A stretch of 64,000 nt of DNA from an uncultured Candidatus Saccharibacteria bacterium (GCA_964426385.1 CAYRQF010000001.1:167939-231938), one strand, 5' to 3'. Counted from the stretch's first letter, positions 16,556 through 58,441 are shown. Numbers and translations are program-made. Notes: a model not told the origin generated them from the sequence alone.

Positions 16556-17917
16556 TTATATAATTCTGACTATACCTTTGTTTGCATCAACTTCGACAAT
16601 ATCTCCATCTTTGAGGATTCTGGTCGCATTTTTAGTTCCTATAATACAAGGCTTCTTAAGTTCGCGAGCAACAATAGCCGCATGGGAAGTTATTCCACCC
16701 TCATCAGTTACAAAAGCGCTAGCCCTGGGCAATATCGGCATCATTTCAGGACGAGTCATGCTCGTCACAATAACATCGCCGTCCAGAACCTTACCAAAAT
16801 CCAGAGCACTATTAATTATAACGACTCGCCCGGTGGCTACGCCAGTGTTTGCAACAAAGCCCTTTACCTCATTACCCAGACTTTTATTGATTGACTCTGT
16901 TACGCTTAGGTTTTCCTTTTCTGCATCTACTCCATACTTAAAATCTCGGAACGTCCACCAAAATCCTTCATTTGCTTTTTTTGACTGTTCTAAAAGTTCT
17001 TCTTTTGAAAAATCGGTAAACCAAGTGAAGTATGCCGATTGAAGTATAACTTTTTCTGTTTCTTTATCGAACTTATAAAGGGATAGTAATTTTTTGTATG
17101 CCAAATCTAAAATAGAATTTGCTCGATAAATTTCTTCTTTTCTTGCATCCTGAAGATCGATTGCTTTTGAAAGTAAGTAATTGATTTTCTGCTCAGGCGT
17201 GATTAATTCACTTACATCAACTCTTATTTCTTGATGAGACTCAAAAGAAGAAACAATTTCTTCTGCTTCTTCCTTTTGAATTTTATTTAATTTTGCTTCG
17301 AGAGATTTAAGATCAAAAAGATTAAAATTACTATAACTATTCTCAATCCAGGAGAAATTTCTTACAAAGTCTTCTTTTGTATATTTACTTCTCTCTAATT
17401 TTAAGAGAGCAACTTCATATTCAAATCTTTTTGTAAAGCTTGGCTCAAGAGGAAAAACCTTTTTACTAAATTCTTCTGAGGTTTGATTAAAATACTTGAG
17501 CCAATACTCATTATCGAGCGCTATCCCATCAGTTATATAAGCATGCGCTGTAACATCAGAGGCATACTCATAAAACTTTTTAAGCCAGTCTTTTATACCC
17601 TCTTCAGAATCCAATCTCTCTACTTCTATAACCAGAGAAAGATATTTTGACTTTAAGTCATCAATAATGGAAAAGGCTTTGGGGAAATAAGTATTAATAA
17701 AATCTTGATCTTGGTTAATTTTCTTCAAGAACTCCTGACGTATCCTCTCTAGATCATCTTTGTGTACATAGGCGGTGACTTTCTGATCTTTATAAAAATA
17801 TGTGCCATCTTTCCAAAATTCACCGCCAAATACATCATTGAATTTCTTTAGGGCATTCATTTGAAGTCCGAATGGTCCGTTATGTGCATTAAACGTTTTT
17901 ATTAGATATTTCTCCAT
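16556..17917 (-). CDS. Protein with a C-terminal PEP-utilising-enzyme mobile (swivel phosphohistidine) domain; N-terminal domain unknown
   Basis: 453 aa; the C-terminus reads ...GDVIVTSMTRPEMMPILPRASAFVTDEGGITSHAAIVARELKKPCIIGTK. Confidence 0.85.
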   Translation of the reverse strand: MEKYLIKTFNAHNGPFGLQMNALKKFNDVFGGEFWKDGTYFYKDQKVTAYVHKDDLERIRQEFLKKINQDQDFINTYFPKAFSIIDDLKSKYLSLVIEVERLDSEEGIKDWLKKFYEYASDVTAHAYITDGIALDNEYWLKYFNQTSEEFSKKVFPLEPSFTKRFEYEVALLKLERSKYTKEDFVRNFSWIENSYSNFNLFDLKSLEAKLNKIQKEEAEEIVSSFESHQEIRVDVSELITPEQKINYLLSKAIDLQDARKEEIYRANSILDLAYKKLLSLYKFDKETEKVILQSAYFTWFTDFSKEELLEQSKKANEGFWWTFRDFKYGVDAEKENLSVTESINKSLGNEVKGFVANTGVATGRVVIINSALDFGKVLDGDVIVTSMTRPEMMPILPRASAFVTDEGGITSHAAIVARELKKPCIIGTKNATRILKDGDIVEVDANKGIVRII

Positions 17918-17920
17918 ATA

Positions 17921-18919
17921 TTAGTTTAAAATTTTAACTATCCCCTTATCTGCATCGACTTCTACTATATCACCAGTCTTGAGTACAGACGTAATTCCCT
18001 TTATACCAACCACACAAGGGATTTTGAGTTCACGTGAGGTTATCGAGGCATGACATATTGCTCCTCCATGCTCGGAAAGTATGGCTCTCGCCTTCTTCAT
18101 AGCTGAGATGAAGTCTGGTGTTGTGGTTGAAGATACAAGGATTTCACCTTCTTGGAATTCGGCGACTTGATCTCTATTTTCAACTCTTCGAACCGAGCCC
18201 TTTATGACACCTCCTTTATAAGCCACTTGGCCCTTCAAAAGAGACGAATCTATTTTTTCCTGCTTGAGTATGATATTTTCCCGGCTCAGAACTTCTGACA
18301 AACTGTACTCGATCTTCTGATCTATAACTACATAATTCCTGAGCCTATTTTCCAGAACCTTAATCGGCTCGAGTTTATTGTCCCTGACTTCGGCGATAGA
18401 TATAACATCAACGTACTTCTCATAACCTGGGAAGATTTTTCGTAAGGAATTTCGGATAGTGCCAGCGATTCCCGGCCCCATGTATTCGGTCTCTTTGCGA
18501 ACGGCGAGTACGTCCTCCATTGGGAGTTTATGCTTGTCGTAATATTCGATCATCCACCACATGCAATCCCACCATGTCCAGGAATTCTTTATCTGGTCGA
18601 GAAAAACTATTAATTCTTCACGACTAAGCGCTCTCTCACTAAGTATCGTATCTTTAACTATATTAAAAAGCTCCAGAGTTTTCGACTTCATAACCTCCCT
18701 ATCGAAGTGTCCTGCCTGCTCGATCTTCCATTCGATACCCTTCGGATCATAGATATAGCTAAGCATCCCGCTCTTACCCTCAAATATACAGAATGGACTG
18801 AAAGAAAATTCTTTGTCTGACCACGGAATATGTTTCTGCGCCTCTCCATAACTCGTAAGCTCCGCGATAATTAGCGGAAATTCGTGGCTCAGTAGTAACT
18901 CATACCCTCTCTTTTCCAT
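17921..18919 (-). CDS. Protein with a C-terminal PEP-utilising-enzyme mobile domain; N-terminal domain unknown
   Basis: 332 aa; the C-terminus reads ...GEILVSSTTTPDFISAMKKARAILSEHGGAICHASITSRELKIPCVVGIK. Confidence 0.8.
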   Translation of the reverse strand: MEKRGYELLLSHEFPLIIAELTSYGEAQKHIPWSDKEFSFSPFCIFEGKSGMLSYIYDPKGIEWKIEQAGHFDREVMKSKTLELFNIVKDTILSERALSREELIVFLDQIKNSWTWWDCMWWMIEYYDKHKLPMEDVLAVRKETEYMGPGIAGTIRNSLRKIFPGYEKYVDVISIAEVRDNKLEPIKVLENRLRNYVVIDQKIEYSLSEVLSRENIILKQEKIDSSLLKGQVAYKGGVIKGSVRRVENRDQVAEFQEGEILVSSTTTPDFISAMKKARAILSEHGGAICHASITSRELKIPCVVGIKGITSVLKTGDIVEVDADKGIVKILN

Positions 18920-18921
18920 AA

Positions 18922-20436
18922 TTATTTATCTAGAATCTTCACAACACCATTATCAGCATCCAGTTCAACCTGATCACCATCCTTTAATATTTTTGTTGCA
19001 TTCCTTGTCCCGATTATACAAGGCTTATTAAGTTCTCTGGAAACTATAGCTGCATGGCAAGTGATACCTCCCTCATCAGTAATAATCCCGGCAGCTTTTC
19101 TCATCGCAGGAACAAAATCTGGCGTAGTCATAGCGGTAACTAAAATATCACCATCGGAAACTTTGCTAATCTCAGTAGAAAGATTACAAACTTTTACAAC
19201 GCCTTTCGCAAAACCTTTACAGGCAATTGATCCCTTTAACTCTTTTACCTCAATAACATCGTCAGCAAAACCGTTAATTTTTATAAAATTCTTAGCCTCT
19301 TCACCAACAATCCAATTAAATTTTAAATCTTTTAAAATAAGAACTCCGGCAAACAACCTTTCTTTTATATTTAATTTAAAATCCTCCTTAATTAAACCTT
19401 CTAATAGAGATGCTTTTATTTCCTGTGGCGACATATATCTTATATACTCGTCGGAGACATTTAGTCGCCTAGCTATTTCCGGAACTACAAGTAATTGTAA
19501 AATCGGATGGCTTCTAGTTTGCGCCGTCTTTTTTAATTCTTGTAGATATGATAATTTCCTAACAGATTCGACAAGCGTTAATATTTCTTGAGGTGCTGAT
19601 AATTTTTTAACTAGAGTATCTCTTGCTTCTAACTTTCTTATTAAATCTAATTTGTTTTTTTCTAAAATTTCAGAAAAATCAACGTCTTCTTTAATCTTAG
19701 TATTAAATTTATTTATAAAATAACTATCGTCCCACAAGACGCCGGTATTATACCCGAAAGGGATAGAAGTGTAGTCTCTTATGTGATTATTGAATAGGTC
19801 TTTTAAATTCTCCGACAAATCATTTACAGAATTAATCTGATCCACCTTCTGACTCTTTGCTAATTTACAAATTTCCATAAAAGAAATATCCTCCTCAGCG
19901 CTTTCTGTTTGGAACTCTAGAGGCTCAATAGCTTCATGTAATACAGAATCATCTAACTCATTGAGGGTAAAGAATTCTTTCAGTGCTTCAACGGTTGCGT
20001 CACTCCCCACCCACCAGGCAGGAGTATTTTTAAAATGAAAAAATCTATATTTTTCACAATATTCAACATAAACATTAGCCAACTGCTCGTTAGACATGTT
20101 TTTTCCCAACTTACCGTCCACTCCAAAAGAACTCTCTAAATAATCTCTGAGGGAATTCTTTTGAGACTCAGACCACAAAATCAAATCATCTAAGTAATTT
20201 AGATCCTTTTTAAATTTACCGACAAGAAAATCTTCAATTTCTTCGTACTCTTCTATTGTATTCACTGCGGTGTTCAGATTTTTTTCGTCAAAAACATAAA
20301 TTATTGAAGTGAGTCGTCCTCCATACTCCTTTAAGGATAAATCGCTCGCTAAATAATCTGTATTGAAAGTAGCCGGAAATGGTGGTATGTGATTTTTAGG
20401 TCTACTTCTAAATAATTTTAAGTTTAGTTTTTCCAT
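18922..20436 (-). CDS. Protein with a C-terminal PEP-utilising-enzyme mobile domain; N-terminal domain unknown
   Basis: 504 aa; the C-terminus reads ...[50 protein letters not shown]. Confidence 0.85.
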
Positions 20437-20437
20437 A

Positions 20438-21721
20438 TTATTTATTCAATATTCTAAGCACTCCATTATCAGCATCCAGTTCAACCTGATCACCATCTTT
20501 AAGGATTTTCAATGCCTCGGATACTCCGATAACCGTCGGGATCTTGAACTCTCGAGCAAAGATAGCGCTATGACACAAAAGACCAGCCATCTGAACTATC
20601 ATACCTTTGGTCTTATGAAGATAGGGCTCTTGTTGAACTAGGGTTTCATTAATAACTAGAATATCCCCGTCTTTAACTTTTATGATTTCGTCAGGATTGT
20701 AAACACATACGATATTACCACTTACAATGCCTTTGCAAGCAGACCTGCCTTTTAATATATTCGTTCTTTCAACTTTGGTATTTAGAAAGATATCGTAGAG
20801 CTTTTCGTATTCATCGTTTGTTCCATGACGAACTACTTCATTATCGATCAAGATAATTCTCTTTGAGTACCTGTCATCAACGCCCGCAGGAAGAGTTCCT
20901 GTCTCGATGGCTGTATGTAACTCATCCGGGGTGAGAACTTCCCAATATTTCAAATCTATGTTTTTAGATGAAAGTAACCTTTGAACCAATGGGCGCATGG
21001 CATAGAGCACATAGTTGATTATGTCTATTCTCTCGAATTTGAGCCACATCAAATCTTGCAAAGCATGAACTTCAGCGTTCTCTGGTATTTTCAAGTCTCT
21101 TTTTACATAAGGACGGGATTGGATCTCCTTCAAATAATCCATTGAAAGTCCTGGAGCTCTCATCAAATTTATTCCATACCAATCCCACTTCACACGGATA
21201 GTTTCCAAATCCTGACCATTACTAGCCTTTGAAACCTCTTCATGAAGCTTCTCTGAAGAAATCTTCTCACTAGGTGTTACATCTTCGAATTTTAGGTCTG
21301 GATAGCTTTTTATGAAATACGCCTCTGCGATATCTGAAATCTCAAGATAAGTCCAAAGAAATGCTAACGCATCTCTCGCTTTATCTTCATAAACTCTTAG
21401 TAACTCATAGTCACCTAATTCAGTCTTCGAAGTATCGTTATCTATATACTCTCGGAGGTCTCGAATGACTTTCTTAAAAGTTTCTGTATACTTTTGAATA
21501 CTTTCGGAGGGATTCTTGCCAAATTCCCCCATAAAGCATTCGTTAGAACTCTTGGATCGGAAATATGTATCGGCAACACCAACAAAATCTCCGAACCCAC
21601 ACTCAACACCAAAAAACTTTTTGAAGCGATCTTTGGACTGAGCTTCTAGAGAAAGCGCATTAAAATACGTTCCGTTCGTCCACGTTCCAATCTTTCTATA
21701 ATTATTGGGTGATATATCCAT
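20438..21721 (-). CDS. Protein with a C-terminal PEP-utilising-enzyme mobile domain (divergent); N-terminal domain unknown
   Basis: 427 aa; the C-terminus reads ...[50 protein letters not shown]. Confidence 0.75.
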
Positions 21722-49065: not shown

Positions 49066-49120
49066 AAGCTCAAGTATATCAAAATGAAGAAAGCCCCGAC
49101 GAGTCGGGGCTTTCCATTTT

Positions 49121-52873: not shown

Positions 52874-52985
52874 ATATTCTTAGATTATTTTTTAATTTAC
52901 TTAGTGATTATATCACTAACACTCGTTATAATATTTATTTGACCTACCAGATATTCTATGGTATCGTCTCACAAAACACATTCAC

Positions 52986-53291
52986 ATGCTGGGAGAACAT
53001 GGAAGGCACCAAGAAAGGGTCGTCTCTGAAAGAAATTACAAGCTGGTTGTCGGCTTAGCAATAGTGCTAGTGATCGTACTAGCAAGCATGCTGACTGCGC
53101 TCGGCCTGAAGCTTCAGGACGACGCCGCAGAGAATCTGGCACTGGAGAAGCGCTTGGCAACCTGTGAGCAGGAGAAAGCCAATCTGGCTACTGAACTCAA
53201 GTACTGCCGTAACATCAACACGCCGAGCGGTGATGCCGTCCTGGGACCTGATGGACAGCCCGACAAATGGGAGATCCGCGACAGCAACTGA
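52986..53291 (+). CDS. Small membrane-anchored coiled-coil protein (GC-rich)
   Basis: 101 aa with a TM helix (LVVGLAIVLVIVLASMLTAL) followed by a coiled coil. A TTGACC-17-TATCGT promoter-like sequence lies upstream. Confidence 0.5.
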   Translation: MLGEHGRHQERVVSERNYKLVVGLAIVLVIVLASMLTALGLKLQDDAAENLALEKRLATCEQEKANLATELKYCRNINTPSGDAVLGPDGQPDKWEIRDSN

Positions 53292-53312
53292 GCACATCAA
53301 CAACCAACGAAC

Positions 53313-53534
53313 ATGTCCCAGACACAAACCGATCAAGAAGTTGCCCTATGGGCTACTCGCGATGGTGACCTTATCACTTACCGAAATGAAACGTGGGTAT
53401 TCCACGAAAAACCGGCGGGTGATACAGGTCTCGAAGCTGGCGACCCCGTCCCGAAACAACTCTACAAGGACAGGACCCACAAGAACAAAGCCGCCGAAAG
53501 TGCTGATCTCGATGGTGAATGTCCTGGAATGTGA
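53313..53534 (+). CDS. Small hypothetical protein (73 aa)
   Basis: Begins 22 bp downstream of the previous gene and is followed by a strong terminator. Confidence 0.45.
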   Translation: MSQTQTDQEVALWATRDGDLITYRNETWVFHEKPAGDTGLEAGDPVPKQLYKDRTHKNKAAESADLDGECPGM

Positions 53535-53553
53535 GACCCTGCACAACCCCGAG

Positions 53554-53586
53554 CAAGCCCCGATCCGTCGGGGCTTGTCTTATTTC
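53554..53586. terminator. Bidirectional rho-independent terminator
   Basis: CAAGCCCCGA TCCG TCGGGGCTTG (10-bp stem) followed by TCTTATTT. Confidence 0.7.
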
Positions 53587-54841: not shown

Positions 54842-55609
54842 TTACATTCTTTCAATAAATATATTCTTTACAAACGCACGTTCAGAATTCGAATTCCTTA
54901 AACCAACTGCTCCAAAATCAAAATCGACATTCTGAGTATATGTGATTGTGTTATGTCCACTTGAATTAGTTTCGCTCCTGGTAACTTTTATACTTGGGGG
55001 TATTATGAAAGATCTATCACAAACTGTGTTTTCATTTTTGTCTAAAATTAATATCTTCACATCTCTCTTTTCGCAAGTAACAAGCAATTTATACCAACTG
55101 TCGAGACTTAGTACTTTTTCTAAAGTTACGTCATCGGCAGCTATCCACTCTCCATTTATCCTTAGATGAGGTCTAATGCGATCTATAAATATTTGGTACA
55201 TAACACCATTAGATAAATTATCAGCCCTTACAATAAAACCAATTGAAGTAGATATTATTTTAAAATCAAATTTATATATATAATCATCCCAATTGAGAGT
55301 TTTTGGTAAAATAAACCCAGCATCAGAATTTGTAATTTCAAAGCATTTTCCATTTCTAGAGAATCTTAAATTTCCTCTTCCGACAAAATCTTTATCTTGA
55401 CCAGAGTGGTCAAGGGATAAAAAATAAAAGGTTTTGTCTTTTGTTCTCAAATAAATAATAAAGAATGTGGAAAACAAGAAAATCACGAGAGATACCAGAA
55501 AAGCTTGTTTTTGAGAGAGCTTCACAAATGCGAGAAATATTGTAATTATATTTACAATAAGCGTAATGAATTCGTATTGGTAACTCTTAATAAATACTTT
55601 AAATTTCAT
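54842..55609 (-). CDS. Hypothetical membrane-anchored protein; very AT-rich gene
   Basis: 255 aa with two N-terminal TM helices and a beta-rich C-terminal domain. The gene is conspicuously AT-rich compared with its neighbours. Confidence 0.5.
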   Translation of the reverse strand: MKFKVFIKSYQYEFITLIVNIITIFLAFVKLSQKQAFLVSLVIFLFSTFFIIYLRTKDKTFYFLSLDHSGQDKDFVGRGNLRFSRNGKCFEITNSDAGFILPKTLNWDDYIYKFDFKIISTSIGFIVRADNLSNGVMYQIFIDRIRPHLRINGEWIAADDVTLEKVLSLDSWYKLLVTCEKRDVKILILDKNENTVCDRSFIIPPSIKVTRSETNSSGHNTITYTQNVDFDFGAVGLRNSNSERAFVKNIFIERM

Positions 55610-55778
55610 TATATTGATTCTTAGTACCGATGGGCCTTAGTGAATTATATAGCATCTGTTAATTCTACCATTCCCAGCTATTCGAAAACAGGTGGGGTCT
55701 TTTTGACCCAAAAAAGATTTGGTGGTACTGTTTAGCCGAATTGCCCCACAATAATGTGGGGCATAAAAACCACAACCC

Positions 55779-56162
55779 ATGGATATTTTGCAACGGTACC
55801 TTTCGGGACAGAAAGTGAGTATTGATCAGATGAGAAGCGCTTCGTTTGACGACATACTCGAACTCAAGATCCAGGTTGATGCTGACATTGCCGGGATAAG
55901 TATACAGCTCGATCGAGCCAAAGAAGACGTAAGGTTGCACGGTACGTATTCGGACCCATCATGGTTTAACAGTGCAACCATGGCCAAGAAAATGAAAGGT
56001 GTCCTCTCACAAACGATCCAAAACGTACTCGGCCAAAGGAGAAGAGTCGAGGACGAAGAGAGGCGAAAGTCCTTTGAAGGTCGAGTCATCCTAGCCATGA
56101 GGGAGCAGCTGGAGCCTGAAGTTGTGTCGGCCATCCTGAAGAGAACCAAAGAGCTGGCGTAG
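55779..56162 (+). CDS. Small hypothetical cytoplasmic protein (127 aa), GC-rich
   Basis: ORF followed by the hairpin terminator at 56192-56222. A perfect 7-bp hairpin (CCCCACA ATAA TGTGGGG) lies about 40 nt upstream. Confidence 0.5.
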   Translation: MDILQRYLSGQKVSIDQMRSASFDDILELKIQVDADIAGISIQLDRAKEDVRLHGTYSDPSWFNSATMAKKMKGVLSQTIQNVLGQRRRVEDEERRKSFEGRVILAMREQLEPEVVSAILKRTKELA

Positions 56163-56191
56163 CAACCGAAGCAAGAGGAATCCCCTCGGAA

Positions 56192-56222
56192 CCCCGCCCA
56201 CAAAGCGGGGTTCTTCTTTTGT
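56192..56222 (+). terminator. Rho-independent terminator (CCCCGC-CCACAAA-GCGGGG plus T-tract)
   Basis: 6-bp GC stem followed by TTCTTCTTTTGTTT, which runs into the next promoter's -35 box. Confidence 0.65.
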
Positions 56223-56251
56223 TTGACAGCAACCGAGTCAAAACATATTAT
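56223..56251 (+). promoter_or_regulatory. Near-consensus sigma70 promoter TTGACA-17-TATTAT
   Basis: -35 at 56223-56228 and -10 at 56246-56251, 18 bp upstream of ATG 56270. Confidence 0.6.
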
Positions 56252-56269
56252 TGTAAAAAACCACCGATC

Positions 56270-56674
56270 ATGGACGAGATCCTAAGAATCCGCATTACGG
56301 TAGGACATGTGATGTTCACCCTGCTTCTTTTCGGAGTCATTTGGGCAGTGTGCAATCTGAGGAAAGGATCTGGCGACAGGTCGTCAAAATCTCTTCCGAA
56401 AGTGAAGCGCCACCTGCCTAACAACGAACTCCTGGCGTTCTCGGACTTCGTCCTGCGAAACCTTCGAGGACAAAGCTTCCGGGATAAAAGCCGGATGGAT
56501 GTCGAGACACTGATCTGCAAAGCCATCGACAGCACTCGACATCAGTACAGTATCGTGATCATGCTCCCCTTGCCCGACATCGACGAATATTTCGATGAGC
56601 TCGTTGACGATGTTCTCCAGTCACTTGTCCGGGAGCGCTTGATATCCGAGAAACTCGTTGCTTTACCGCAATGA
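56270..56674 (+). CDS. Small hypothetical protein with an N-terminal TM helix (134 aa)
   Basis: The start is placed at ATG 56270 (MDEILRIRITVGHVMFTLLLFGVIWAV...), downstream of the promoter. The track ORF's start at 56219 lies inside the upstream terminator. Confidence 0.5.
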   Translation: MDEILRIRITVGHVMFTLLLFGVIWAVCNLRKGSGDRSSKSLPKVKRHLPNNELLAFSDFVLRNLRGQSFRDKSRMDVETLICKAIDSTRHQYSIVIMLPLPDIDEYFDELVDDVLQSLVRERLISEKLVALPQ

Positions 56675-56689
56675 AGATGCTCTTACGCA

Positions 56690-56727
56690 GAAGCCCCCGC
56701 CATCCGGCGGGGGCTTCTTCTTTGTTT
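56690..56727 (+). terminator. Rho-independent terminator (GAAGCCCCCGCC-ATCC-GGCGGGGGCTTC plus T-tract)
   Basis: Perfect 12-bp stem followed by TTCTTTGTTT. It is almost identical to the terminator at 57664-57699. Confidence 0.7.
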
Positions 56728-56754
56728 GACAAAAACGTTTTTTAATAGTATCAT
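56726..56754 (+). promoter_or_regulatory. Near-consensus sigma70 promoter TTGACA-17-TATCAT
   Basis: -35 at 56726-56731 and -10 at 56749-56754, followed by ATG 56774. Confidence 0.6.
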
Positions 56755-56773
56755 CACGTTATATCTAACAACC

Positions 56774-57006
56774 ATGCCAACAACGCAAGTGAAACGACCA
56801 GAAGCAAGGAAGCTTCCGGTGCACGACGCTGGAAGAACGGCAAACGCTTTACCCTGCTCGTCGACGGGAAATGCCCCGCATGCGACATAACCCCGGACAC
56901 TCAGAGCACCGCATTCGCGCTCTTCTGTAAAGAGCATGACCTCCCGCTGAAGAATGATCGCTCGTGCCCGAAATGTAGCGTCGTCCACGACAAGCCCAAA
57001 CCGTGA
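56774..57006 (+). pseudogene. Small zinc-ribbon protein gene, apparently frameshifted (or recoded)
   Basis: ATG 56774 opens a 38-codon frame. The frame one nt upstream encodes ...KRFTLLVDGKCPACDITPDTQSTAFALFCKEHDLPLKNDRSCPKCSVVHDKPKP-stop (C-x2-C ... C-x2-C) but has no in-frame start after the promoter. Confidence 0.4.
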
Positions 57007-57028
57007 CGGTCAATATACGCGCTTCCGA

Positions 57029-57060
57029 GTTCCCCGCCCACAAGGCGGGGAACTTTTTTT
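57029..57060 (+). terminator. Rho-independent terminator (GTTCCCCGC-CCACAAG-GCGGGGAAC plus T7)
   Basis: 9-bp stem followed by TTTTTTT. It resembles the terminator at 56192-56222. Confidence 0.7.
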
Positions 57061-57066
57061 GGCTAA

Positions 57067-57095
57067 TTGACGCGACGTCTCACTTCATCTATCAT
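57067..57095 (+). promoter_or_regulatory. sigma70-like promoter TTGACG-17-TATCAT
   Basis: -35 at 57067-57072 and -10 at 57090-57095, followed by ATG 57115. Confidence 0.55.
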
Positions 57096-57114
57096 CCGAA
57101 CAAACCTCCCCGCC

Positions 57115-57642
57115 ATGAAAACCTGCCACCCGCTCCTTATCACCGCGCTCTGCGTCCTGGTTCACACCACCTCAGCCCAAGTTGAGGTCAAAGTCGAAGT
57201 TACATTACCTGACGAGAACCTCGACACTCTCCGCTCTACTGCTGACTACTTCACCTACTGTGTGAACTATCATCTACAACGGAACTACCCTTCCGATGTC
57301 GAGACACTATCTGTCGACCTATACTGTGACAGTGGTCAGGTAAAGCTCCGGTACTACGCACGACTGCTACCATGCGATCAACCTGATGCTGAGTTCAACT
57401 TCAACCACACTGGAAGCTTCGCCCTGAAGAAGAAAGCAAAAAGAGCCCAGAGCTTCGCCGAGAGCGGGATGGAGAAGCGAATCATAGAGACCAGGAAACG
57501 GCTAGACTACACGTATGGCAAGTCAGCCAACAAGGTGTCTAAGACCCGCATGATCGTAAAGTACAGTTCTACCGATATCTGCACCGACTACAGATATAGC
57601 GTAGCGGTGACGGAAGCTTTCTTTGCGACCAAGCGATGGTGA
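57115..57642 (+). CDS. Secreted cysteine-containing hypothetical protein (175 aa)
   Basis: The start is placed at ATG 57115 (MKTCHPLLITALCVLVHTTSAQ, a signal peptide). The track ORF starts at TTG 57067, which is the -35 box. Confidence 0.55.
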   Translation: MKTCHPLLITALCVLVHTTSAQVEVKVEVTLPDENLDTLRSTADYFTYCVNYHLQRNYPSDVETLSVDLYCDSGQVKLRYYARLLPCDQPDAEFNFNHTGSFALKKKAKRAQSFAESGMEKRIIETRKRLDYTYGKSANKVSKTRMIVKYSSTDICTDYRYSVAVTEAFFATKRW

Positions 57643-57663
57643 TGCATAGTTCACACGGACGCA

Positions 57664-57699
57664 GAAGCCCCCGCCGATCAGGCGGGGGCTTCTTCTTTT
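57664..57699 (+). terminator. Rho-independent terminator (GAAGCCCCCGCC-GATCA-GGCGGGGGCTTC plus T-tract)
   Basis: Perfect 12-bp stem followed by TTCTTTT. It abuts the stop of the convergent methyltransferase gene. Confidence 0.7.
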
Positions 57700-58441
57700 A
57701 TACAGGAGTTATGAGAAAGGATTTTGATTTGCGATTATATGAACTGATTTCCTCTACCTTTAACTGCGGATTGGCTTCCACGAACTCGTTGAAAGACTCG
57801 TATTCGCCCACCCCCTTGATATCGAGATCGTTCAGCTTCCAATCATCGAGACAGATAATCATCGTGGACTTGATGAGCGGGGCGATGAAGTCGAGCACAG
57901 ACTTCGATGAACTGTATGTATCGCAGTCGATGAAAACTATACCGATGTTTTCGAAGTTATATTGCGCGACCGTTTGCGCGTTCAATGTGTCCTTGTACCA
58001 GCCTCGGACCCAATTGATCTCCCTAGGATCAACGTTTCTCCTCCCGAGACACCTATTCATATCTTCGAACGAACATGTATAGAATCCCTGCTTCCACACT
58101 CCTTCGTCCTCATTCTCTGAGCCAGCAGGCAAACCCTCAAACGCGTCGAATCCAAATATACGAGTGACAACACGACTCTCCTTACAGGCGTGATAGAAGC
58201 TCGCGACCGAGGCACCGTTGAAAACTCCGAACTCGAGATAGTCACCGATCTTTTCACCCTTGAGTTTCTGCAGCTTCCTAATCGCCCTCTCGAAGAAGCT
58301 CTGCAGTCTTTTAGACGGGACGAGATTTACCAGACAGATATCTTTGACCTGACCCATAGTATACGGAGATGTCGGTACAGGAAGAATCCGGCGCCAGATG
58401 CTAAGGATTCTTGTTTTAAACTTGCTGTAACGGAAAGACAT
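57698..58441 (-). CDS. Class I SAM-dependent O-methyltransferase, TylF/MycF (macrocin-O-MT) family-like
   Basis: 247 aa; the LEFGVFNGAS (SAM Gly-rich motif), FDAFEGLP and IDCDTYSS motifs resemble the TylF family. Confidence 0.65.
   Translation of the reverse strand: MSFRYSKFKTRILSIWRRILPVPTSPYTMGQVKDICLVNLVPSKRLQSFFERAIRKLQKLKGEKIGDYLEFGVFNGASVASFYHACKESRVVTRIFGFDAFEGLPAGSENEDEGVWKQGFYTCSFEDMNRCLGRRNVDPREINWVRGWYKDTLNAQTVAQYNFENIGIVFIDCDTYSSSKSVLDFIAPLIKSTMIICLDDWKLNDLDIKGVGEYESFNEFVEANPQLKVEEISSYNRKSKSFLITPV

Follow-up and report, generated by a model that had tools for sequence, protein, structure and literature searches.

The cassettes of integron-type arrays are mostly promoterless. A phage moron is defined as a gene lying between a σ70-type promoter and a factor-independent terminator (PMC3714127), and the exchange of genes in the minimal mobile elements (MMEs) of Neisseria, a naturally competent organism, has been ascribed to homologous recombination (PMC3082526). 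Here, we describe an array of four small-gene units (A–D; positions 55646–57699) in the 64,000-nt stretch of DNA CAYRQF010000001.1:167939–231938 (assembly GCA_964426385.1), which is referred to below as the window and is numbered from its first nucleotide. The array, to which an earlier note on this DNA had drawn attention, shares features with each of these systems. Three of its units (A, B and D) are intact and one (C) is inactivated by a 16-nt deletion. We consider it probable that it represents a chromosomal array of self-contained single-gene units in the genome of a Saccharibacteria-like member of the Patescibacteria, with the modules between the genes acting as recombination substrates. 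The genomes of Patescibacteria are tiny, and how these bacteria regulate their genes or vary their surface and secreted proteins is poorly known.

Organization of the array

All features of the array lie on the forward (+) strand. Genes A (55779–56162), B (56270–56674) and D (57115–57642) are intact open reading frames (ORFs) and C (56774–57006) is a remnant. The distance from stop codon to the next ATG is uniform, at 99–108 nt, and is filled by a module of ∼105 nt that comprises a predicted terminator, an interrupted T-tract, −35 and −10 elements and an A/C-rich leader of 18–19 nt without a Shine–Dalgarno sequence.

Two types of predicted terminator alternate along the array, as the earlier note had recognized: type 1 (CCCCGCCCACAARGCGGGG) is found after A and C, and type 2 (ACGCAGAAGCCCCCGCC-loop-GGCGGGGGCTTCTTCTTT) after B and D; the two type-2 copies differ in their loops alone. 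The type-1 terminator after A (56188–56222; hairpin 56188–56214, −18.4 kcal/mol) reads GAACCCCGC-CCACAAA-GCGGGGTTC followed by TTCTTTTGT, and that after C (57027–57062; hairpin 57027–57055, −23.3 kcal/mol) reads GAGTTCCCCGCC-CACAA-GGCGGGGAACTT followed by TTTTTGG. The type-2 terminator after B (56689–56725; hairpin 56689–56718, −29.3 kcal/mol) is AGAAGCCCCCGCC-ATCC-GGCGGGGGCTTCT with TCTTTGT behind it, and its counterpart after D (57663–57699; hairpin 57663–57693, −30.2 kcal/mol) is AGAAGCCCCCGCC-GATCA-GGCGGGGGCTTCT with TCTTTT behind it, adjoining the stop codon of a convergent methyltransferase gene. RNA folding of the four places them at −18 to −30 kcal/mol with z scores of −3.7 to −6.8, and they are the strongest terminator-like hairpins between 53 and 60 kb. 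Within the window both types are confined to the array (chance expectation 0.00 and 0.07).

Terminators of the same style follow unrelated ordinary genes at 49089–49114 and 53553–53578. Their 9-bp stems (AAGCCCCGA/TCGGGGCTT) are identical and their loops differ, which is the relationship that also holds between the two type-2 copies, and the same stem recurs in a distant relative (L063). The type-1 core CCCCGCCCACAARRCGGGG is present, mostly with a T-run behind it, in 41 IMG/VR contigs whose content is unrelated. In many of these viral contigs (loci L015–L055) the hairpin CCCCGCCCACAAAGCGGGG with its T-run directly precedes promoters resembling CTTGCA-N17-TAGTAAKAT; it may be a favoured terminator of some phage groups. 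The type-2 pattern gave only eight matches in IMG/VR, all to unrelated high-GC hairpins, and a search of JGI metagenomes and IMG/VR for the junction pattern CGGGG..TTCTTCTTT.GTTTGACA gave a single chance match within a protease gene. Since terminators of this style also follow ordinary genes and the type-1 hairpin is found in viral contigs, terminator similarity alone proves little. The identity of the modules reaches beyond the stems, with ACGCAG before type 2 and TTCTTCTTTTGTTTGACA after both types; the type-2 copies share 17 + 18 nt, including the non-stem ACGC. The case for regarding the modules as probably homologous rests on this identity beyond the stems together with the comparative data given below.

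The putative promoters of B, C and D end 18–19 nt upstream of the ATG and are the three best promoter-like sites between 53 and 60 kb in a consensus scan. The promoter and leader of B (56223–56269) consist of TTGACA-17-TATTAT (56223–56251; 11/12 consensus positions) and an 18-nt A/C-rich leader, TGTAAAAAACCACCGATC, without a Shine–Dalgarno sequence. Those of C (56726–56773) consist of TTGACA-17-TATCAT (56726–56754; 11/12) and a 19-nt leader, and those of D (57067–57114) of TTGACG-17-TATCAT (57067–57095; 10/12) and the leader CCGAACAAACCTCCCCGCC. The pattern TTGACR-N17-TATYAT occurs four times in the window, three of them in the array, where 0.06 would be expected. A near-consensus promoter had been claimed within about 20 nt of every ATG; this holds for B, C and D, but the best candidate for A is the weak TTGACC-17-TACTGT (55703–55731), 47 nt before the ATG. 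It lies in a conserved upstream region (55646–55778) that also contains a 5′-leader hairpin, UGCCCCACA-AUAA-UGUGGGGCA (55742–55763; −16.8 kcal/mol, z −3.7). Homology of this region to three contigs from relatives (L004, L006 and L005) begins sharply at about 55646–55648, and in the comparison with L005 both hexamers are conserved and the first half of the spacer differs. From this we infer that TTGACC-17-TACTGT may serve as the promoter of A. The leaders of A, B and two units found in relatives (E and F; see below) have AAAAACC(A/C)CC..CCATG in common.

Mechanically determined ORFs of B, C and D start at TTG codons (56219, 56726 and 57067) inside a T-tract or −35 box, as had been pointed out. 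The further suggestion that automated callers would therefore mis-start these genes is not borne out, since the gene calls stored in public assemblies, with products of 127, 134 and 175 aa, correspond to the ATG starts.

Shine–Dalgarno sequences are nearly absent from the upstream regions of the ∼44 genes in the window, and about ten of the 44 have TGnTAnAAT 6–11 nt before the ATG. An extended −10 element so close to the ATG suggests that leaderless mRNAs may be widespread in the lineage. The array promoters are built differently from those of the TGnTAnAAT genes, with a strong −35 element, no TG extension and a leader of ∼12 nt.

Unit turnover among relatives

The informative comparison comprises three diverged lineages and two very short contigs of low coverage (L005 and L059). 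In the window, in L004 and in L056 the array lies at the same site, between AAA_33, ASCH and NUDIX genes on the left and DUF1428 and MIP genes on the right. The ENA contigs L004 and L006, with ∼93% nucleotide identity in the flanks, carry units A and B, an intact C, an additional unit E and D. Contigs L056, L057 and L058 (Logan, NCBI), with ∼85% identity in the flanks, carry four units: A′ (145 aa, unrelated to A, type-1 terminator), B′ (131 aa, 61% identity to B, type-2 terminator), F (132 aa, membrane-anchored, unrelated to C but in its place, type-1 terminator) and D′ (175 aa, 88% identity to D, type-2 terminator). C is absent from L056. The comparison of the locus in relatives that the earlier note had called for thus reveals units gained, lost or replaced (E absent, A versus A′, C versus F) while B, D and the modules are kept. 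Of the cassette shuffling or amplification that it had envisaged, cassette-like change in unit content among relatives is seen; there is no sign of amplification or, among the 30 annotated ORFs, of dedicated shuffling machinery.

Unit E of L004, between C and D, consists of TTGACC-17-TATTAT, a gene for a 43-aa membrane peptide and a type-1 terminator. Alignment shows that it is missing from the window exactly between two type-1 hairpins, with the junction within the type-1 hairpin that follows C. The alternation of terminator types is intact in L056 and broken in L004, where C and E both have type 1, and the only place at which it is broken is the site of the unit missing from the window. The promoter spacer, −10 element and leader of E are orthologous to those of F; the E and F proteins have no similarity by BLASTP, so that promoters and leaders alone align. 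Judged from these alignments, loss of the unit by the window is most likely, rather than its gain by L004.

In the contig L005 (763 nt, 1.2× coverage) the 130-nt region upstream of A is shared and a homologue of A follows it, but the flanks are different and more GC-rich, and a type-2 terminator takes the place of type 1. The contig L059 (ENA ERZ2271710; 590 nt, 3× coverage) is 100% L056-like as far as the middle of B and 92–98% window-like thereafter, and is the product either of recombination within gene B or of chimeric assembly at low coverage. In the more distant L063, D-family genes (36% identity) are found near NUDIX and DUF1428 genes, in units with a predicted promoter, an A/C-rich leader and a AAGCCCCGAC..GTCGGGGCTT terminator.

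Variation at the hotspot extends to both sides of the array. A second hypervariable slot adjoins the array on its left and is occupied by mutually unrelated genes of 255 aa (window), 158 aa (L004) and 156 aa (L056), and the methyltransferase gene to the right of D is absent from L056. An assembly chimera was considered as the origin of the window sequence and rejected, as B, C, E and D are spanned without a break by L004, an independent ENA contig; a synthetic construct was rejected on the grounds of natural divergence across several metagenomes.

Synonymous sites are near saturation between the window and L056 (pS 0.37–0.68 for flanking and array genes). In the intergenic regions of the same pair the hairpin stems, the TTCTTCTTTT tract, the −35 and −10 elements and the leader are conserved, and variation is found in the loops, in the 17-nt promoter spacers and between the stop codon and the hairpin. 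This pattern is the footprint that would be expected of working terminators and promoters. The type-1 terminator after A is fully conserved in L004 and has one loop base changed in L056; the type-2 stem after B is the same in both, with varying loops; and the type-2 terminator after D has 91% identity to its L056 copy. The promoter of C is conserved in L004, and that of D is kept along with its gene in both L004 and L056.

Encoded proteins

Purifying selection acts on A, B and D, which are real genes. A encodes a mostly charged, cytoplasmic protein of 127 aa with a dN/dS of 0.14 relative to the L005 homologue; among 5.8 billion proteins it matched only itself and one protein with 77% identity, and nothing was found for it at the curated cut-off or at E < 0.001 in Pfam, PHROGs, NCBIfam, PADLOC or the PDB. 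B encodes a 134-aa protein with an N-terminal membrane helix that matched no curated family. It has three homologues (95, 75 and 61% identity) and a dN/dS of 0.18 relative to L056, and its AF2 model consists of a transmembrane helix and a three-helix domain at low confidence (pLDDT 64).

D encodes a 175-aa protein with an N-terminal signal-like sequence (dN/dS 0.12). It belongs to a small uncharacterized family of ∼165-aa proteins, with 23 cluster representatives at E < 1e-3, which have an N-terminal hydrophobic stretch and an AQ/SQ motif in common; a genome collection scanned with the D alignment gave no relative. The AF2 model of D is an α/β structure (pLDDT 90) for which no fold match was found in the PDB. 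A single match was obtained with an uncharacterized protein of an uncultured caudovirus (TM 0.68, E 1.6e-4). A distant member of the D family lies beside an rve-type transposase gene just upstream of a ribosomal-protein operon in L065 (JGI 3300009082), so the D family also occurs in unrelated contexts.

Searches of Pfam, PHROGs, NCBIfam, PADLOC and the PDB with A, B, C, D, A′, F and the neighbouring proteins gave sub-threshold matches only, and none of the units fits a defence-system, Pfam or NCBIfam family. Our best guess is that the proteins act as envelope or secreted accessory factors, given that B, E and F are predicted to be membrane-anchored and D to be secreted.

The earlier note had listed four unrelated intact proteins, with C as an ORF at 56774–57006. 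A, B and D are indeed intact, but the C interval is 233 nt long, which is not a multiple of three, and represents a frameshifted zinc-ribbon gene. Translation from the ATG would end at 56890 after 38 aa, and the Cys-rich frame (−1), which runs to the TGA at 57004–57006, contains no ATG, GTG or TTG start. In L004, 16 nt (CAGTAAAGTGCAAGAG) are present that have been deleted after position 56837 of the window, and C is a single ORF of 82 aa from the promoter-side ATG to the terminator-side stop with two C-x13-CPxC motifs; the window copy of C has thus been reduced to a remnant by a frameshift. The same sequence of C is found in an independent Logan contig (L003), so the frameshift is not a one-off assembly error. 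A programmed frameshift was considered and rejected, as a slippery site is absent and the gene of the sister strain is simply in frame. No homologues of C were found; with the intact L004 protein as the query, the E value of its matches to MPME and IS1595 zinc ribbons rose from 8.6e-5 to 0.006.

Genomic context

The window is part of a cellular chromosome. Its housekeeping content includes BipA, two PBPs, GatB, a class II aminoacyl-tRNA synthetase, DAP epimerase and THDPS, and it also encodes ABC/FtsX transporters and two tRNAs, which were the only hits of an Rfam scan of the window. The neighbours of the array encode a 255-aa membrane protein, NUDIX and ASCH proteins, an AAA_33 kinase, a TylF-type methyltransferase, a DUF1428 protein and an aquaporin-family (MIP) protein, the last assigned through its L056 orthologue. 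No recombinase, integrase, transposase or phage gene is found among 30 annotated ORFs, a set that takes in the annotated genes up to ∼15 kb from the array in either direction. Among species-representative genomes, a close relative of the flanking DUF1428 protein (61% identity) is encoded only in a metagenome-assembled genome (MAG) of an uncultured Candidatus Saccharibacteria; that MAG has no counterpart of the array. The host lineage is therefore tentatively and probably placed in the Saccharibacteria/Patescibacteria.

The genes of the array had been described as GC-rich, but the excess is mild: the array has 50.6% GC compared with 45.2% for the window, where BipA and other core genes are at up to 50%. 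Array GC and GC3 are near core-gene values, with overlap in GC3. The apparent contrast stems from the adjacent gene for the 255-aa membrane protein (54842–55609, reverse strand), which has 30% GC and a GC3 of 24% in a genome of 45% GC. The TylF-type methyltransferase gene (57698–58441, reverse strand) lies between D and the DUF1428 gene; in L056 D′ directly adjoins DUF1428, which marks a further insertion or deletion at the hotspot. Some 2 kb upstream of the array a similar small-gene unit is found (52939–53578, forward strand), with a promoter-like TTGACC-17-TATCGT ahead of its two small genes (101 and 73 aa) and the 53553 terminator behind them; the gene pair is kept in L004 and L056. A further compositional outlier is the AT-rich region at 17000–21000 (32–36% GC), which contains PEP-utilizer-domain genes beside a PPDK-like gene of 1036 aa.

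Proposed mechanism and alternatives

We propose that each module would terminate the upstream transcript and initiate the next one, so that each small protein would be expressed independently and probably strongly. Because the modules form near-identical repeats, both within the array and between strains, they would also be suitable substrates for homologous recombination, presumably of the RecA type, and recombination at the modules could delete, replace or import whole units with the neighbours undisturbed. Natural competence of the lineage might supply the incoming DNA for such unit exchange; it has been demonstrated experimentally for Saccharibacteria (PMC10633639).

Several points weigh against this proposal. 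Stereotyped terminators also follow ordinary genes, both in the window and in L063, and the similarity of the repeats may thus partly reflect constraint rather than shared origin; the scan for the two terminator types covered the 64-kb window. The promoters and terminators are predictions, and the direction of each gain or loss is deduced from three lineages. A chimeric assembly is possible for both short contigs, L005 (1.2×) and L059 (3×). Placement in the Saccharibacteria/Patescibacteria is tentative because it depends on one DUF1428 match at 61% identity.

The first alternative, which we regard as unlikely though deserving serious consideration, is a vertically inherited cluster of fast-evolving orphan genes, in which the shared signals are the lineage's narrow solution to expressing them and the differences between strains arose by deletion and divergence with no exchange of units. 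The syntenic location of the locus and the core-like GC and GC3 of the array fit such a history, as do the decay of C and the possibility that E is a remnant of F. So do the identical-stem terminators at unlinked genes (49091 and 53555) and in L063, and here the refutation that the earlier note had foreseen for its cassettes, a syntenic locus with generic terminators after core genes, applies in part, with synteny and same-style terminators at 49091 and 53555 both observed. However, A and A′ are dissimilar despite conserved junctions on both sides, the A homologue of L005 is differently flanked and is followed by a terminator of the other type, and L059 is a clean mosaic of two lineages. The nucleotides shared by the type-2 copies (17 + 18, including ACGC) also exceed what convergence would be expected to produce.

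It is quite improbable that the units are phage-derived morons that entered on a phage or remain from a decayed prophage. Their architecture fits the published definition (PMC3714127), the 41 IMG/VR contigs carry the type-1 hairpin with its T-run often right before a promoter-like site, the model of D matches the caudovirus protein (E 1.6e-4, TM 0.68) and there are weak PHROG matches for A and C. However, the type-1-bearing viral contigs encode no relative of A–E, and blastn and tblastn searches of 50,697 phage records and of plasmids gave no DNA or protein match. Moreover, no phage gene, integrase or att-like repeat was found near the array, its neighbours are housekeeping genes and it has been stable at one site over ∼15% nucleotide divergence.

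A site-specific cassette system of the integron or rAID type, with the hairpins as sites for a recombinase encoded elsewhere, would explain why repetitive intergenic sequences separate unrelated small genes and why units are gained and lost at hairpin boundaries in a manner reminiscent of rAID-1 arrays (10.1101/471110), but is highly improbable given that no tyrosine recombinase adjoins the array, that the hairpins are short, perfect GC stems of 9–13 bp with T-tracts, unlike the imperfect attC sites of 57–141 nt, that the GTTRRRY core is absent at unit boundaries, that every unit has its own promoter and that breakpoints also lie in promoters and within gene B.

Returning to homologous recombination between modules in a chromosomal array, this reading admits a bolder version, which we offer as speculative and improbable: the ∼105-nt module could be a portable `expression adaptor' through which Saccharibacteria, with reduced genomes and natural competence, capture, express at once and discard genes for small envelope or secreted proteins at a fixed chromosomal site by homologous recombination alone. 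If this were true, the adaptor would be a recombinase-free functional analogue of the integron, tuned to an epibiotic lifestyle. In any case, the locus offers a small, clean example of orphan small-protein genes being gained, lost and pseudogenized at a hotspot without mobile-element machinery, and should units turn out to pass from one genome to another, it would illustrate a minimal means of assembling a variable gene array. Its promoter, leader and terminator parts, defined by phylogenetic footprinting, could be used as expression signals in new genetic tools for Saccharibacteria.

Comparison with known systems

The array resembles integron and rAID-1 arrays (10.1101/471110) in its tandem arrangement of unrelated small genes, its repetitive intergenic sequences and its variable content. 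It differs from them in lacking an adjacent integrase or XerD-type recombinase and attC-like sites, in the promoter and terminator that accompany every unit and in its size of only four or five units.

The likeness to phage morons is closer. Like these, the units are insulated, would be movable as functional cassettes by recombination and are present or absent between close relatives. B, C and D have σ70-like promoters that match the consensus at 10–11 of 12 positions with a 17-nt spacer (for A there is only a weak candidate), and the four hairpins with T-tracts correspond to factor-independent terminators. Morons interrupt genes that are neighbours in related phages and have a G+C content clearly unlike that around them. 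The present units lie outside any phage or prophage, among genes for NUDIX, ASCH, kinase, methyltransferase, DUF1428 and aquaporin proteins, and form a tandem series with near-identical signal modules, a composition apparently close to the host's (50.6% GC compared with 45.2% for the window and up to 50% for core genes) and stable synteny.

As in the MMEs of Neisseria, conserved genes bound the site in the window, L004 and L056 (AAA_33/ASCH/NUDIX to the left, DUF1428/MIP to the right), and the whole-gene cassettes it holds differ from strain to strain (A or A′, C and E or F, and a gene of 255, 158 or 156 aa in the left slot). MMEs are incorporated without mobility genes; none was found near the array, and with its junctions in homologous modules the array would likewise owe its variation to homologous recombination. 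In contrast to the MMEs, the homology that would drive exchange is found not only in the flanking genes but also inside the array, in the terminator–promoter modules, so that individual units within the site turn over. The most likely reading is thus that moron-like units occupy a chromosomal hotspot of the MME kind. Variable loci of this sort are known, and homologous recombination at repeats is a conventional mechanism.

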